From a bacterium (GTDB lineage: Bacteria > UBA8248), in NCBI GenBank assembly GCA_965219955.1, contig OZ244799.1:2560001-2624000 (forward strand): DNA of 64,000 nt, read 5' to 3'. The notes under the pieces are model-generated. The model saw only the letters and a list, made by a program, of their open reading frames with translations. It made no database searches and was not told the origin of the DNA. Both the position numbers and the translations under genes were made by a program. Every line of letters begins with the position of its first letter. Within the stretch, counting starts at the first letter, position 1. Shown here in pieces: positions 37,293 through 43,431 of the stretch.

Positions 37293-37464
37293 GCCGCCCT
37301 CCTTGTGCGCAGCCGCCCTGGCGGGGGCGGGAGCGTTCGCGGTCCGCGGGCGAACGCGTGCAGCTTCTCGACAAGATGAGCAGGAACGCAACGGAGCGCA
37401 CCCCGAGACGGCGGCGACCGCCGCAGGCATGGGGGGGAGATATTCCGCTCTGCTCCTTTCACGG

Positions 37465-37493
37465 GCCGGCGTCCCGGCGTCGGCTTTTTTTTT
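37465..37493 (+). terminator. Intrinsic terminator just upstream of the toprim gene RBS
   Basis: GC-rich stem followed by a run of 9 T. Confidence 0.65.
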
Positions 37494-37518
37494 GCTGGTT
37501 ATCCAGAGGAGGTCCATC

Positions 37519-38514
37519 ATGCCCCGAACACCATCTCCCGCGGCCGGGATCGCCGCAGCGCTCGCCTCGCGGGCAGAGGACGTCTGCCGCCAATACCTGC
37601 CCGGGGGCAAGAAGCAGGGCCGCTATTGGATAGCGGGCGACCTCAAAGGCTCGCCCGGACGCTCGCTCTTCGTCCGCCTGAAGCCTCCGGGCGCGCCGGG
37701 CAAGTGGACCGACGCGGCCACCGGCGAGCACGGCGACCTGCTCGACCTGATCCGCAGCCGTTGCGCCGCGCCGACGCTGCGCGCGGCCATGGACGAGGCA
37801 CGCGCCTTCCTCGCCCTGCCCGCTCCGCCGCCCACCGGCGAGGGCCCGCCATACGACGCCAGGGAAGCGGCGCGGCGCATCTGGCGGGGTTGCCGTCCGC
37901 TCGACGGCGGCCCGGGAGAGGCCTACCTCCGCGCCCGGGGGATCACGCGGTTCCGCTTCCCCTCCCTGCGCTTCCACCCAGCGCTCTACCATCGCGAAGC
38001 CGACCGCCGTCTGCCCGCCCTGGTCGCCGCCGTGACCGACACCGAAGGCGCGCTCCACGGGGTGCACCGCACCTGGATCGATCCCGGTGCGTCCGCCAAG
38101 GCCGGCGTCCTCCCCACTCGTAAAGCGCTCGGCCGGGTCTTCGGATACGCCGTGCGTTTCGGCGCCCCCGGCGCCGCCCTCCTGGTCGGGGAGGGCATCG
38201 AGACGGTTCTCTCGGTAGTCACCGCGGCGCCCCGTGTCCCCGCCGCGGCCGCCCTCTCCGCAGGCAGCCTCGGCGCCTTCGTCCCCCCCGAGGGGGTCTC
38301 TTGCCTCATCGTCGCACGAGACAACGACCCGGAAGGCGAGAGGGCTACGGAACGCCTGGCCGCTCGCTGCACACGAATCGGGGTCGCCACCCGCGTCATC
38401 GTCTCCGAACGCGGAGACTTCAACGACGACCTCGCTGCGCTCGGCGCCGCCGTCCTCGCCGCACGGCTCGCTCCGCTCTTCCGCCTGGCAGGAGTCGGAG
38501 AGGAGCGGGGTTGA
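37519..38514 (+). CDS. Toprim-domain primase-like protein
   Basis: GKWTDAATGEHGDLLDLI, YLRARGI, GEGIET, ARDND, DFNDDL. Confidence 0.9.
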   Translation: MPRTPSPAAGIAAALASRAEDVCRQYLPGGKKQGRYWIAGDLKGSPGRSLFVRLKPPGAPGKWTDAATGEHGDLLDLIRSRCAAPTLRAAMDEARAFLALPAPPPTGEGPPYDAREAARRIWRGCRPLDGGPGEAYLRARGITRFRFPSLRFHPALYHREADRRLPALVAAVTDTEGALHGVHRTWIDPGASAKAGVLPTRKALGRVFGYAVRFGAPGAALLVGEGIETVLSVVTAAPRVPAAAALSAGSLGAFVPPEGVSCLIVARDNDPEGERATERLAARCTRIGVATRVIVSERGDFNDDLAALGAAVLAARLAPLFRLAGVGEERG

Positions 38515-38547
38515 GTGGGGCGAAGCCCTGGTGAAAGGAGGGAGAGA

Positions 38548-38775
38548 ATGGACACCATCACCTTCAAGCGAATCGCCCCGCACGAGTCCCGCATCTACGC
38601 CGGGGGCGAGTATGTCGGCGACGTCTACCGCCGCGACGATATCCTCGCCCCCGGCCATGTCTTCTACGTCGTGCACCTCGACGAGGACCCCCGAGGTCCC
38701 CGGCGCGTGCACGAACGCCGCCGCATCCGCGAGGTCGCGCAGCGCCTCGTCGATTCACACCCGTTGTGGTCGTAA
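38548..38775 (+). CDS. Hypothetical protein
   Basis: AAGGAGG RBS, 75 aa. Confidence 0.6.
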   Translation: MDTITFKRIAPHESRIYAGGEYVGDVYRRDDILAPGHVFYVVHLDEDPRGPRRVHERRRIREVAQRLVDSHPLWS

Positions 38776-38991
38776 TCGGGAGTCAGTCGGCCGCGCCTGC
38801 ACGTGCAGCCGGCCTATATACGTCTGGCGGGGGGGCGGCGGAAGGATAACGCCGTCCTGCTGCACAGCCGGCCCGCCGCCGGGGGGTCGCCTCCCGGCGG
38901 CGGCTCCGCCGTTCGTCGTATACGTATCGCCGTCTCGAAGCCGTCCAGGTTTCCTCTCGCCGGGGACCGCAGGCCGGTGCCTCAAAACGGG

Positions 38992-39265
38992 CTAGCTCAC
39001 GGCGTCCCTGAGCGCCTTGCCCGCCCTGAAGACCGGCGTATTCGAAGCCGCAATGGCGACGCTCTCGCCCGTGCGCAGGTTGCGCCCGGTGCGGGCCGGA
39101 CGGCTTCTCCTTGAGAACCTGCCGAACCCGACGATGGCGACGGCCTCATCGCGCGCAAGCGCCTCGCCGATGGCCGACAGCATCGCTTCGAGCGACCTTC
39201 CCGCGGCCGCGTGGCTCAGGCACGTCTCAGAGGCCAGGTGGAGCGACGACTTCAAGCTTCCTCAT
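38992..39265 (-). pseudogene. HU family DNA-binding protein with a 1-nt frameshift after codon 8
   Basis: GFGRFS...ARTGRNLRTGE...PVFRAGKALRDAV; the ATG at 39265 (MRKLEVVA) is out of frame by one base. Confidence 0.8.
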
Positions 39266-39493: not shown

Positions 39494-39625
39494 ATGTACG
39501 AGAACGACTTCGACGTCGATGTTCCCACCACGGACGAACTGCTCGCAGAACTCGGACTCGACGCGTACACGATCCGCAAGATTCGCGACGAGGCGGGGGG
39601 CGAGGAGGAGTTCAGGAGGGAATAG
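39494..39625 (+). CDS. Small acidic protein (43 aa)
   Basis: AGGAGG RBS; MYENDFDVDVPTTDELLAELGLD... Confidence 0.55.
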   Translation: MYENDFDVDVPTTDELLAELGLDAYTIRKIRDEAGGEEEFRRE

Positions 39626-39701
39626 GGCAGATTGGGGGATCGGGGAGAGAGGCTTCCCGGCCCCTTCCACTTCATCATCTACACCACGAAGGAGAATCAT
39701 C

Positions 39702-40145
39702 ATGGCATTCGGACTCAACAGAGCGGAACTGATCGGGCGTCTCGGCGCCGACGCCGACATCAACCACCTCACGAGCGGCGGTCGCGTCGCCAACCTGTCC
39801 ATCGCGACGGATGAGGGCTACGTCGACAAGCAGAGCGGCGAGCGGGTGGACAAGACCGAGTGGCACCGAGTCGTGACCTTCCAGCCCGGGCTGGTCGACA
39901 TGTTCGAAAAGCACGCGAAGAAGGGCCGCCTGGTCTACATCGCGGGCAAGCTCCAGACCCGCCGCTGGAAGAAGGACGAGGAGGACTCTGATCGGTTCTC
40001 GACCGAGATCCTCATCGCGCCGGGCGGGCGCGTGCAGTTCCTCGACAAGGTGAACGGGAACGGAAATGGCAACGGTAACGGCAACGGCGCGCACGCCGAG
40101 GCGACGGTGCCCGCAGGCGTAGCCGGGGACGACATCCCGTTCTAG
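39702..40145 (+). CDS. ssb: Single-stranded DNA-binding protein
   Basis: LNRAELIGRLGAD, TEWHRVV, GKLQTRRW, C-terminal DDIPF. Confidence 0.95.
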   Translation: MAFGLNRAELIGRLGADADINHLTSGGRVANLSIATDEGYVDKQSGERVDKTEWHRVVTFQPGLVDMFEKHAKKGRLVYIAGKLQTRRWKKDEEDSDRFSTEILIAPGGRVQFLDKVNGNGNGNGNGNGAHAEATVPAGVAGDDIPF

Positions 40146-40151
40146 GTTCGC

Positions 40152-40188
40152 AAGGGGTCGGCGCTTCGGCGTCGGCCCCTTTTTCTTT
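40152..40188 (+). terminator. Intrinsic terminator after ssb
   Basis: GC-rich stem closed by a CTTCGG loop, followed by a T tract. Confidence 0.8.
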
Positions 40189-40284
40189 GCTCCTTATCCA
40201 GAGAAGGTCCGCTCTGTCTGCCCTCTCATCTACCGGGAACACCCGGTAAATCCTCCGGTTCCGTGAACGTGTATGGACGCGCCC

Positions 40285-40539
40285 AGGATTGCAAGCATGG
40301 TCTTGAATAGTTCGGCGCAAAGTGGTCAGGCGCATTCGTGTATCCGGCCTCTCGATTGCGGCGTTTTTTTGCCGCGGGCCCGTATGGAGATGCGAGGATC
40401 GGGTCCATATCGATGAAGCGAGCTTGAAAGCTCTCCGTTCAGCGCCTGGTTTTCCCGATCCCGTCTCGATGACCGTTTGCCCCTACGTTATCCTCCGACC
40501 TGCTCACATTCCTCCCGGCTATACTTGCTCGCCCGCCGA
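40285..40539 (-). ncRNA. Bridge/seek RNA of the IS1111-type element (limits approximate)
   Basis: Segments matching target (40436-40441, 40411-40417) and donor junction (40353-40358, 40337-40343). Confidence 0.8.
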
Positions 40540-41565
40540 TCAGATGACCGGCGCAGGCTCCCTGTAGACCTGTTTGTTCGTCATCAGCGCCCAGGCGATG
40601 CGCGCCATCCTGTTCGCCAGCGCCACCGCGACCAGCATACGAGGCTTGCGCGCCAGCATCCGGGCCAGCCACGAGCCCGGTGGCGCGCCGCGCTGGTCCG
40701 CCCAGCGCACCACCACCATCGCGCCCATGATCAACAGCCGCCTGATGTCGCGCTGACCCATCTTCGATATCTTGCCCAGCCGCGCCTTGCCGCCCGTGGA
40801 GTGCTGCCGGGGTACGAGTCCGAGCCAGGCGGAGAAGTCCCGCCCGCACCGGAAGCTCTCCATCGGCGGCGCGAAGGCCAGTATCGCCGACGCGCAGATC
40901 GGCCCGACCCCCGGGATGCTCATCAGACGCCTCGCCTCTTCGTCCTCGTAAGCGCCGGCCCGGATACGGCTCTCCAGGTCCCCGATCTTCCTGTTGAGGC
41001 CGGCAATTTGCCCGAGCAGAAGCCCGCCCAGTTCGTGCACCGTCTCCGGCAGCCCCGAGTCCGGGTCCGCAACGGCCGACGCCAGCCGCGCGACGTGAGC
41101 GAGACCCTTGGGAGCGATGACGCCGAACTCCGCCAGGTGCCCGCGCAAGGCGTTGCTCGTCTGCGTACGCTGGCGAACCAGCAAGTCGCGTGTGCGGAAC
41201 AGCATCCCCAGGGACTGCTGCTCTTCGGTCTTCACCGCCACGAACCGCATCGTCGGCCGGGAGGCCGCCTCGCAGATCGCTTCCGCATCCGAGGTGTCGT
41301 TCTTCTGCCGTTTGACGAAAGGCTTCACGTAGACCGGTGGCATGATCTTCACCTCATGGCCGAGTTCACCGATCTCGCGGCCCCAATAGTGCGCGCTCCC
41401 GCATGCCTCCATCGCAACCTCACACCGCGGCTGCGATTCCAGAAAACCCAATACCTTCCCCCGGGTCAGCTTCTTGCGGAACGCGACCGACCCGTCCGGG
41501 CGCGCACCGTGGAGTTGAAAACCGTGTTTCGCCAAGTCGATACCGATGATGTGGACCTGTTCCAT
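40540..41565 (-). CDS. IS110 family DEDD recombinase/transposase (341 aa)
   Basis: IGIDLAK, MEACG, KNDTSDAEAI, GLVPRQHSTGGK; GGAGG RBS. Confidence 0.95.
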   Translation of the reverse strand: MEQVHIIGIDLAKHGFQLHGARPDGSVAFRKKLTRGKVLGFLESQPRCEVAMEACGSAHYWGREIGELGHEVKIMPPVYVKPFVKRQKNDTSDAEAICEAASRPTMRFVAVKTEEQQSLGMLFRTRDLLVRQRTQTSNALRGHLAEFGVIAPKGLAHVARLASAVADPDSGLPETVHELGGLLLGQIAGLNRKIGDLESRIRAGAYEDEEARRLMSIPGVGPICASAILAFAPPMESFRCGRDFSAWLGLVPRQHSTGGKARLGKISKMGQRDIRRLLIMGAMVVVRWADQRGAPPGSWLARMLARKPRMLVAVALANRMARIAWALMTNKQVYREPAPVI

Positions 41566-41858
41566 CTCGCTCCTCCCGCAGGGCGGTAGACGATGTCGTC
41601 TCGCCCTAGTGTGATGGCGCCGGGAGGGCGCGTCCACCCCATCGATGAACCGTGTTCCCGGAAGATCGGCATGCTCCTGCCAATCATTCCATATTCAAGA
41701 CAGTGGCTCGATCTACCCCCCGCTGCGGGAATTTCGGGCCGAAAAAACGGCCCGAAATGACCCTTTCCGCAGCATGAGAGACTGTTTCCCGATGAGCTTC
41801 GCCTTCATCGTGAAACACCAAAGGCTCTTGTGTCCCGGTGGCGGTACTACCCTCTCTC

Positions 41859-42049
41859 TCTTAGCGCTCCCATTTTAGCACGCACGGCGCGGGGTCAAGG
41901 GTGCTTTTGCAAAAAACGCAAAAGCATCTTTTTTCAGAAAAAATCGGTGAAGCGTGGATTTTTTCCGCTGCGCGCCCTCCGGGTGAAAAAAGACTGAAAA
42001 CCGCCCCTGACGCCCACACCTAGCACGTGCTGAAAATGGGACGCTAAGA
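41859..42049 (+). promoter_or_regulatory. Frpo-like single-stranded-DNA promoter hairpin
   Basis: Long imperfect IR TCTTAGCGCTCCCATTTTAGCACG / CGTGCTGAAAATGGGACGCTAAGA with nested hairpins; TTGACC and TAAAAT on the minus strand of the left arm. Confidence 0.65.
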
Positions 42050-42084
42050 AGCGCATCCGTTAACTCTCTGGAAAGGAGAAAGGC

Positions 42085-42456
42085 ATGGAAACCACCGTGG
42101 TGAACCTGAACGAATATGTAGCAGAAAAAGGCCGTGGCTTGCTGGTCAGGATCGACCGCACCACGAAATGGGGAAATCCCTACCATCTCGGCGTGGATGG
42201 GGTCCGCGACAGCGTGATTGAAAAATACCGGCGATGGCTCTGGGGAAAAATCCAGGGCCAGGAGATCGATCTTCACGAACTCGCCGACCTGCAGGGAATG
42301 GAGCTTGGCTGCCACTGCCATCCCCTTCCGTGCCACGGCGACGTCCTCGCACGCGCCATCGATTGGGCCGCCGGCTATCTCGACAAGATGCCGAAAGAAG
42401 TGGGGCGCAACGAGCGTGGCTACGCTCTTCCCGAATTCAACTATCCCCTCGCTTGA
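42085..42456 (+). CDS. DUF4326 family protein
   Basis: IDRTTKWGNPY...IEKYRRWL...LGCHCHPLPCHGDVL. Confidence 0.9.
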   Translation: METTVVNLNEYVAEKGRGLLVRIDRTTKWGNPYHLGVDGVRDSVIEKYRRWLWGKIQGQEIDLHELADLQGMELGCHCHPLPCHGDVLARAIDWAAGYLDKMPKEVGRNERGYALPEFNYPLA

Positions 42457-42477
42457 GGACAACGAAAGGAGTGAACG

Positions 42478-43431
42478 ATGACTGCCACCGCGACACACAA
42501 GGAGATGATCATGCACGAGCATACGGAACACGAAGCGCAGAACGAATCCTTCACCGCCATGGTCTGCGAGCAGGCCGCACTCTTCGGCGCGACCCCCGGG
42601 CCGGACGAGTTCGACAACCGGCCCGTCTGGGGCGAGGCGGAGTCCACCGCCGCCGTCCTCAAGGCCTTCGTCGCACTCGCCGAAGCCGCACCCGACGGAA
42701 CCCAGCTGGCGGACGAGCGGGCGAGCCTCCTGTGGGGCTTCGTCAACACCCTGGACGCCCAGACACAGCGGCTCGACCGCGCCGCCGACAAGCTCATCCC
42801 CGGCATCCGTGAAATGCAGCGCGAGCAGGACGGCTCCGAGATCAGGTCGCGTGAACTCGAACTCGCGACCGACCGGGCGCAAAACCTCACCGCCCGCCGC
42901 GACGCCTTCGAAGGACTGCGCGACGCCGCCGCAGAGGCCTACCGCGTCGAGACCGGCGAGGTATGGCGCCCGAGGCGAGGATCGCACGTCAGCCAGACCG
43001 GCAAGCTCACGTCGGCGGTGATCGAGGCGCGCGACTTCCAGCGCGCGAAAAAGGACCGCGAGAACACGGCCCACCTCCCCCAGGGAACGCTCGTCGCCGT
43101 CGCGGGAGGCAAGGAAGCCACCGACGCCGGTAAAATCATCGGCCAGCTCGACAAGCTGAAAGCCAAGTACGCCGACGTCGTCCTCGTCCACGGCGGCGGC
43201 CCCGGTGCGGAGAAGATAGCGGCTGGCTGGGCCGAGCGGAACGGCGTCCACCAGATCGTCTGCAAGCCCGACTGGGACGCCCACGGCAGGGCCGCTCCCT
43301 TCAGGCGCAACGACGAGCTGCTCTCCCTCCTCCCCAAGGGCGTGATCGCCTTCCCGGGTTCGGGCATCACGGACAACCTCGTCGACAAGGCCCGCACCCT
43401 CGGCATCCCCGTGCAACGCGTGGCCGCCTGA
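42478..43431 (+). CDS. DUF2493 / YspA-like SLOG domain protein
   Basis: VAVAGG, LVHGGGPGAEKIAAGWA, AAPFRRNDELL, IAFPGSGIT. Confidence 0.88.
   Translation: MTATATHKEMIMHEHTEHEAQNESFTAMVCEQAALFGATPGPDEFDNRPVWGEAESTAAVLKAFVALAEAAPDGTQLADERASLLWGFVNTLDAQTQRLDRAADKLIPGIREMQREQDGSEIRSRELELATDRAQNLTARRDAFEGLRDAAAEAYRVETGEVWRPRRGSHVSQTGKLTSAVIEARDFQRAKKDRENTAHLPQGTLVAVAGGKEATDAGKIIGQLDKLKAKYADVVLVHGGGPGAEKIAAGWAERNGVHQIVCKPDWDAHGRAAPFRRNDELLSLLPKGVIAFPGSGITDNLVDKARTLGIPVQRVAA

Follow-up and report, generated by a model that had tools for sequence, protein, structure and literature searches.

RNA-guided recombinases of the IS110/IS1111 insertion sequences are under development as programmable DNA-insertion tools, and several described elements are close to the locus considered here. 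In the IS1111 seekRNAs of ISEc11, ISPa11 and ISKpn4 the match to the target's top strand lies 5' of the match to the bottom strand, an order found by experiment and the reverse of the IS110-type one, and IS1111 transposases are characterised by a GL-P----S(t)G motif and its TG variant (Siddiquee et al. 2024, PMC11187229). The IS1111 group is defined by subterminal inverted repeats of 7-17 bp, with bridge RNAs reported in the right end (Durrant et al. 2024, PMC11208160), and IS621 combines DEDD residues with a serine loop (Hiraizumi et al. 2024, PMC11208158). We describe an insertion sequence in a 64,000-nucleotide (nt) stretch of bacterial DNA (GTDB lineage UBA8248; assembly GCA_965219955.1, contig OZ244799.1, positions 2,560,001 to 2,624,000), hereafter the window. 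We interpret it as an element of the IS1111 group within the IS110 family, made up of a DEDD/Tnp recombinase and a bridge RNA (seekRNA) with a target arm and a donor arm, and put the probability of this interpretation at about 0.88. It is backed directly by the ends of the element, empty sites, protein domains, a conserved RNA structure and the covariation of three guides with DNA. The kind of system is known, having been described in 2024, and the window element is a further member of a large subfamily.

Ends, target site and recombinase of the element

The element occupies 40270..41642 (1373 bp, plus one copy of a CG core) and, like all features below, is read on the minus strand. It starts with ATGGGG-TGGACGCGCC and finishes with GGCGCGTCCA-TACA. 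The left subterminal inverted repeat TGGACGCGCC (41627..41636) lies 6 nt inside the left end ATGGGG (41642-41637), as in relatives, and the right repeat GGCGCGTCCA (40274..40283) lies 4 nt (TACA) inside the right end; the pair measures 10 bp here and 10-13 bp in relatives. The non-coding lengths, 270 nt 3' of the stop codon and 78 nt 5' of the ATG, correspond to the IS1111 layout (PMC11208160, PMC11187229). Copies of the CG core stand at 41643-41644 and 40268-40269. The left target half TTCAT (41645..41649), continued into the core CG (41644-41643), reads as the left target guide with its core, and the right target half TTCA (40264..40267) follows the core CG (40269-40268) to give CGTTCA, the complement of the right target guide.

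These boundaries were established from empty sites. The same genome holds a 145-nt repeat in five uninterrupted copies, each of which carries the two flanks of the element side by side with a two-base (CG) overlap, so that the element comprises 40270-41642 and one CG. The empty-site join reads ...GGTTCAT-CG-TTCACGG..., with TTCAA in one of the five copies and TTCGCGG in two. Insertion was therefore precise, at TTCAT-CG-TTCA within the repeat, with no duplication beyond the shared CG; for the exact element, this test of site precision comprises one insertion in its own genome (n=1). Eight copies of a sister element, 79% identical, end at the same boundaries in this genome. In plus-strand notation, TGAA-CG-ATGAA is the target and CCCCAT-CG-TGTAT the predicted circle junction, and the sequence readout and empty sites thus confirm the target, junction, CG core and all five coordinate ranges given in the initial annotation of this locus, the flanks of the five empty sites overlapping by CG only. 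The interrupted repeat was delimited by blastn of an empty copy against the genome, which returned the two window halves (left part 41643..41730, right part 40220-40269) and the five whole copies (G000 3701223-3701347, 1866851-1866994, 2786865-2787010, 2776810-2776954 and 1897936-1898070); the six copies are about 90% alike. An Rfam scan of one empty target locus gave no match for the 145-nt repeat.

Contigs of X5, a sponge metagenome from another study, span both junctions with few differences, and the same insertion is thus present outside the source sample. An X5 contig also links 40252 to 41643 through 14 letters, as an uninterrupted repeat copy does; we rejected it as evidence of excision, since it may be a paralogous copy of the repeat. 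All public runs compared here and below were assembled contigs, in which regions without cover carry no meaning.

The recombinase gene (40540..41565) is an open frame of 341 amino acids with GGAGG 5' of its ATG. Its product matches PF01548 (DEDD RuvC-like; 1.5e-16, 61 bits) and PF02371 (Tnp domain; 1.8e-24, 86.3 bits), both above the cut-off, as well as chains of ISCro4 (9t56) and IS621 (8wt6) through its C-terminal domain. Motifs aligned to ISCro4 place the catalytic residues at D10, E53, D90 and D93 together with T257-G258, this Thr-Gly lying in GLVPRQHSTG. These positions match the DEDD residues and serine loop of IS621 (PMC11208158) and agree with the IS1111 transposase motif (PMC11187229). 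Together, the two domains and the subterminal inverted repeats support the IS110-family membership proposed initially. The same annotation had called the element intact and programmable: the reading frame, the catalytic residues and both ends bear out the first part, and natural retargeting in relatives suggests the second.

Conserved RNA structure and its guides

When aligned, the region 3' of the gene consists of a strongly conserved scaffold and a few element-specific blocks, and three of the four segments that the initial annotation had read as guides, UGAACG, UUCAUCG and AUACACG, lie within such blocks. A covariance model, R1, places the bridge/seek RNA core at 40322..40482 (model positions 1-160) with 166.9 bits and an E value of 1.6e-37, a score that holds partly by construction given that the window is one of the 27 training rows. 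At E <= 1e-5, R1 returned 95 matches from 91 sources, and within the genome itself it found 12 places: the window copy, 8 sister copies, 2 orphan RNAs without a gene and 1 distant element. The covariance-model alignment that had been proposed as a check thereby recovered a conserved structured RNA.

The structure was written from the window sequence and counted on 27 distinct sequences, in which 98.1% of 782 cells were paired and 11 of 29 pairs were altered on both sides, compared with 3.7 in shuffles (0/500 shuffles reach this value); when partners were slid by 1-3 columns, pairing fell to only 20-45%. RNAalifold independently recovered helices P1 to P5. In P1, GGAUCGGG (5' strand, 40454..40461) pairs with CCCGAUCC (40403-40396), and seven of its eight pairs change on both sides. 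P2 is CCA/UGG, and P1 and P2 close an internal loop capped by the target-loop hairpin P3 (40420..40433), in which GAGC and GCUC enclose the loop UUUCAA, all cells (100%) are paired and two of four pairs are compensatory. The donor hairpin (40346..40380) is formed by P4 (GGCC/GGCC) and P5 (GCGGC/GCCGC), with the internal loop AAUCGAGA at 40357-40350; a distant relative in the same genome has GCAGG/CCUGC at the position of P5. A possible closing helix P0 (GGUCA with UGACC) is ambiguous, RNAalifold favouring a local GUC/GAC hairpin and the sole compensatory case (L081) fitting both.

Within the target arm, the right target guide UGAACG (40436..40441) forms the 5' strand of the loop, pairs with top-strand CG+TTCA and tracks its own right flank. 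The left target guide UUCAUCG (40411..40417) forms the 3' strand and has the sense of the top strand, TTCAT+CG, its predicted pairing being with the bottom strand; in the model alignment this strand is laid out as hairpin, two bases, seven bases and AU. The top-strand match (40441-40436) therefore lies 5' of the bottom-strand match (40417-40411) in the window RNA. To count guide matches, we left out 30 of the 95 model matches in which one or both ends were not in reach. Four rows (L032:2787-2949, L041:2788-2950, L062:2587-2744 and L072:2581-2743) were excluded from both insertion-level and type-level counts, and L089:2587-2744 was excluded at type level only, staying in the insertion-level count as the single 3/7 outlier; the ends of the dropped rows came from a neighbouring element or a false motif. 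In a fixed register, the left target guide matched its own flank at 7/7 positions in 39 of 63 unique insertions and at six or more in 53 of 63, compared with 7/7 in 1 of 3340 non-cognate pairs. Counted by type (19 variants, five non-core positions), 81 of 95 positions were identical against 27.5 when shuffled, a value that 0 of 100,000 shuffles reached. The register of the right target guide shifts by 1-2 bases between elements, and the longest exact match was therefore scored: its mean was 5.97 in the 63 insertions versus 3.25 for non-cognate pairs, and 6.19 versus 3.26 by type (26 variants; 0/5,000 shuffles reach it). In many elements this strand reaches just one of the two core bases, namely the second. 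For the window itself the values are 7/7 on the left and 6 on the right. Collectively, this covariation with own flanks across relatives corroborates the target-binding loop in which UGAACG and UUCAUCG had been proposed to flank a hairpin.

The donor arm is laid out as the P4/P5 hairpin, GG and seven bases that equal the last five of the right end plus the core, which mirrors the arrangement of the left target guide (hairpin, 2-nt spacer and 7-nt guide ending in the core). In the window these seven bases are AUACACG (40337..40343), in the same sense as the right end A+TACA+CG. They equal the element's own right end in 8/8 variants (ATACACG in the window, ATATACG, ACATACG, ATGCACG, ATAGACG, ACACACG, ATAGATG and ATACATG), with a 7/7 match in 57 of 63 insertions. 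In ATAGATG and ATACATG the guide follows the core as it changes from CG to TG. The same right-end rule is obeyed by the left donor guide of a distant element with the core AA in the same genome. As judged from these sequence comparisons, the earlier assignment of AUACACG as the left donor guide is well supported.

Proposed mechanism and competing explanations

In the mechanism that we infer, P1 and P2 close the internal loop of the target arm and P3 caps it, and GG-AUACACG, following the P4/P5 hairpin in the donor arm, would read the element's own right end and core; CUCCAU, before the donor hairpin, could pair with the left end ATGGGG. The RNA would be produced and bound by the recombinase. 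On the analogy of ISEc11/ISPa11 and IS621, excision of the element would yield a circle joining ...ATACA-CG-ATGGGG..., in which the junction would supply both the recombinase gene and the RNA with a promoter. An active window copy would then use its recombinase-RNA complex to recombine this junction with TTCAT-CG-TTCA, with strand exchange at the CG. A putative promoter of this kind combines TTGCAA (40289..40294), a possible -35 within a GCTTGCA that is conserved at the same place in relatives, with CACGAT, which in the circle would lie 17 nt downstream and span the right end, core and left end as read by eye. The pair resembles the junction promoters described for the IS110/IS1111 family (PMC12288879, PMC11187229).

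Several observations weigh against this interpretation. P4 and P5 are nearly invariant, and covariation neither supports nor contradicts their pairing. The fold of the window sequence alone differs from the family consensus and has a z-score of only -2.3, 3 of 200 shuffles folding as well; in it UGAA and UUCA, which are mutually complementary, are partly paired and, on the window alone, could merely extend the hairpin. An Rfam scan of 39500-42500 gave no relevant match at E <= 1. Among the eight sister copies, the right-target variant fits its own right flank in 6/8, which is not significant alone. No sigma-70-like promoter site was found on either strand of the linear copy. Although 8 exact 11-mer targets are unoccupied in the genome (0.8 expected), the element is present only once; it may be recent or quiescent. 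A fourth guide, on the donor side, is not established. Finally, contigs from RNA libraries stem only from relatives (about 93% identity), and such libraries can contain DNA. One 488-nt contig of library X20 covers 40274-40671 at about 93% identity, and in library X19 the likeness to the window stops at 41644, the outer core base; the relatives' contigs differ from the window at, among other positions, 40413, 40415 and 40417 (in the left target guide) and 40443/40444. We rejected these contigs as proof of transcription, as they are assemblies of relatives, which give neither the ends nor the strand nor the level of an RNA and in which DNA can be present.

The earlier four-guide reading is one alternative. 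If that reading were right in full, CAAUCG (40353..40358), whose C is the last base of P5 and whose remainder lies in the P5/P4 internal loop, would be the right donor guide and would pair with CG+ATGG of the left end despite one mismatch. The window's CAAUCG matches the expected CCAUCG at 5/6 positions, only 4 of them contiguous, which alone is not above chance, and the exact hexamer CCAUCG was not found in the 270-nt non-coding region. A CAUC(G/A) string does follow P5 in several relatives, fitting the core in L061, the L094 type, L074/75 and L104/105, and the right donor guide of IS621 is likewise short and interrupted (PMC11208158). However, across 23 combinations of donor loop and left end, the internal loop offers five or more contiguous complementary bases in only 4, exactly four in 6 (the window included) and three or fewer in 13. 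The segment differs freely among elements, reading AAUCGAGA, AACGAAGA, AAAAGAGA, AUAGAGA, AUCAACA and so on despite a common left end CG-ATGGGG, and CAAUCG shares its (3') side of the donor hairpin with AUACACG, unlike the target guides, which flank theirs. We consider the full four-guide reading unlikely and CAAUCG as right donor guide probably wrong. The sequence comparisons point instead to CUCCAU (40384..40389) as the better candidate. This hexamer forms the 5' strand beside the donor hairpin and complements ATGGGG, one of the pairs being G.U. The counterpart position of the right target guide is the strand immediately 5' of P4, reading CUCCAU-ACG (40389-40381) in the window, and in 19 of the 23 combinations the hexamer is complementary, by Watson-Crick or G.U pairs, to the six bases that open its own left end. 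CUCCAU and the left end vary too little to covary, and the bases after CCAU do not track the core (CG, TG or AA); the CG of CUCCAU-ACG could reach the core given one bulged A. A short or bulged right donor guide would not be odd, because that of IS621 is itself short and interrupted.

Two further explanations concern the guides that do covary. Under one of them, only the target arm would be an RNA guide, as in a short seekRNA, and AUACACG would be a second copy of the right-end site at the DNA level, kept by recombination or used by the protein. For ISEc11, a short 82-nt RNA with only the target matches was enough to allow movement, in a report that did not settle what the long RNA does (PMC11187229); the tandem duplications in L005 and L093, from the guide-coding site to the right end, show that DNA recombination has occurred there; and identity between guide and top strand cannot alone separate RNA-DNA pairing from DNA-level likeness. 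Set against this, the context of the donor arm is conserved and structured and has the layout of the target arm, its eight left donor variants are held in register with the core change included, and donor loops are predicted for IS1111 elements (PMC11208160), which together make this explanation quite improbable. Under the other, the matches would be due to chance or target symmetry, UGAA and UUCA would extend the hairpin, and the region would amount to an unremarkable 3' untranslated structure or a terminator. In its favour are the complementarity and fold statistics of the window given above and the frequency with which mononucleotide shuffles of the 270-nt non-coding region (200,000 shuffles) contain the right-target 6-mer, namely 7.4%. 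The left-target 7-mer, however, occurs in 0.6%, the left-donor 7-mer in 1.8% and all three in 1/200,000. Moreover, the two loop strands of relatives, such as CCGGACG and GUAAGCG, each match their own flank without being mutually complementary, which removes the hairpin-lengthening reading of UGAA/UUCA, and covariation of each loop strand with its own flank is already seen at the family level. We regard this last explanation as very improbable, and favour an IS1111-group element with a two-arm guide RNA.

Relatives, neighbourhood and described systems

The subfamily is very common and mostly metagenomic. A scan of one genome per species gave 80 loci with 66-99% protein identity, in assemblies of Alphaproteobacteria, Vicinamibacterales, Gemmatimonadota, Longimicrobiales and Nitrospinota, and a protein search gave at least 8000 relatives at E <= 1e-30. 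Among the 120 matches listed, the only name was 'IS110 family transposase', with no specific name. Many alphaproteobacterial plasmids carry DNA 65-68% identical over about 90% of the element; the plasmid search returned no named insertion sequence, and ISfinder and the supplements with predicted IS1111 RNAs, which were outside its scope, may list the subfamily.

In the window's own genome, the eight sister copies (L002-L009, e.g. G000:C1:496647-498030) are inserted beside GGACATATATGTCC / GGACACGCAGGTCC repeats and have two right-target guide variants, AUGCGUGUCC and AUAUAUGUCC; L003 has the variant left guide GAGGGCG. Two orphan bridge-RNA-like sequences, at G000:C1:1860716-1860875 (-) and 3812417-3812577 (+), score 138.5 and 129 bits and lack an intact upstream recombinase gene, one lying after no more than the last part of a gene and the other standing directly after an apparent tRNA gene. 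The distant IS1111-type element (G000:C1:2634540-2635990), about 10 kb past the window end, scores 46.8 bits to the model; its core is AA and its left end ATGGTA, its subterminal repeats measure 12 bp, and its guides agree with its own flanks and right end. Elsewhere, L029 (1-60, 1202-1480) encodes a recombinase 99% identical to that of the window with the left target guide GUAACCG, and its left end shows 15 bases, GCGTCCCTACCGCAA, in place of the expected ATGGGG, the locus lying at a contig end. In L037:2581-2928 the RNA gene is split by an insertion of about 190 nt in the 3' strand of P1. At the right junctions of L004, L009, L029, L078 and L082, the first core base differs from the left junction (GG, CA or CC versus CG). 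Such a difference would be consistent with tolerance of a mismatch at core position 1, a base that many right target guides leave uncovered.

Other relatives appear to have moved into one another. L032:2547-2950 and L041:2547-2950 hold an element with the guides GCAAACG and UUUUGACCG inside another member's RNA-gene scaffold, GGGCAAA-CG-GTCAAxCGAGAC, an insertion that parts the host element's gene from its RNA. L062, L089 (second RNA match 1218-1376) and L091 (1231-1381) are inserted in the right subterminal repeat of another IS1111 relative, at GGGGG-CG-TCCATAGA or TCCATATA, and their right target guide follows the host element's right end. IS4321 and IS5075 reportedly target the terminal repeats of Tn21-family transposons, as Partridge and Hall are said to have found in 2003, and L062/L089, L091 and L032/L041, though not the window element, are akin to them in lying within the ends or RNA genes of other mobile elements. 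L005 (G000:C1:4138591-4139967 and about 70 nt beyond) and L093:1839-2122 carry a tandem duplication running from the left-donor-guide DNA to the right end, which gives the appearance of recombination between the right end and the guide-coding site, these two having 7-9 bases in common. A wider account would bring these cases together: donor reading may be asymmetric, the right end and core being read by a covarying RNA guide and the left end by an invariant CCAU/ATGG contact together with the subterminal repeat, with guide DNA serving as a pseudo-donor in the tails of L005/L093 and members retargeted onto each other's RNA genes or right ends in L032/L041, L062/L089 and L091. We offer this account tentatively and hold it to be doubtful as a whole; if it were true, one insertion sequence would, in this mutual retargeting, in effect parasitise another by RNA guidance.

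The repeat interrupted by the window element lies between an ssb gene with its terminator and the genes of a DUF4326 and a YspA-type SLOG protein, with a Toprim/DUF7146 protein and an HU-like protein nearby (neighbours at window 37303-39255 and 42085-43431). By its gene content, which is typical of integrated mobile elements, the neighbourhood looks like part of a mobile element. For the host genome the element is ordinary: one apparently intact, possibly quiescent insertion sequence in a repeat beside ssb. Of wider interest, it contributes an IS1111-type guide RNA that can be read and has a CG core, and the subfamily provides a natural series on one conserved scaffold, in which no fewer than 19 guide variants for the left target, 26 for the right target and 8 for the left donor are each matched by a DNA partner of their own. 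This series reveals the positions that may change and the register in which they do so. Reading by eye does not yield the subfamily's right donor guide, which is relevant for reprogramming the donor side.

Among solved structures, the best match to the recombinase is ISCro4 (9t56; E 8.7e-15), with aligned GIDxxK, xMEA, KxDxxDA and GLxPRxxxSG-loop motifs; ISCro4, a name taken from the depositors' molecule name, is only a distant sequence relative. With IS621 (8wt6), the element shares a two-arm RNA for target and donor and guides for both strands that overlap at the core dinucleotide (PMC11208160, PMC11208158), as well as a DEDD and Ser/Thr composite active site, the C-terminal domain matching at E 5.7e-14. 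Unlike IS621, the window element encodes its RNA after the gene rather than before it, and the guide order in each loop is reversed; its core is CG (TG or AA in relatives) and not CT, its subterminal repeats are long, and the nucleophile position is Thr (T257) instead of Ser. The right donor guide, if it is CUCCAU, also differs in not visibly reading the core. As for an IS621-type handshake, by eye neither the GA that lies 3' of UGAACG nor the GG 3' of the CUCCAUACG segment matches the expected positions.

The closest likeness in layout is with ISEc11, ISPa11 and ISKpn4, which we compared by their published description (PMC11187229). Shared features are the long non-coding region 3' of the gene, the subterminal inverted repeats, a recombinase of about 340 amino acids with GL-P----(S/T)G (here GLVPRQHSTG), two short target matches, the top-strand one lying 5', with an overlap at the insertion point, natural retargeting among close relatives and the use of repeats as targets. 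Unlike these three, the window element has the target TTCAT-CG-TTCA in a 145-nt repeat beside ssb. That report assigned no donor-reading part to the RNA, whereas the left donor guide of the window subfamily covaries with the right end. Collectively, these comparisons mark the element as a good but ordinary example of a recently described system.

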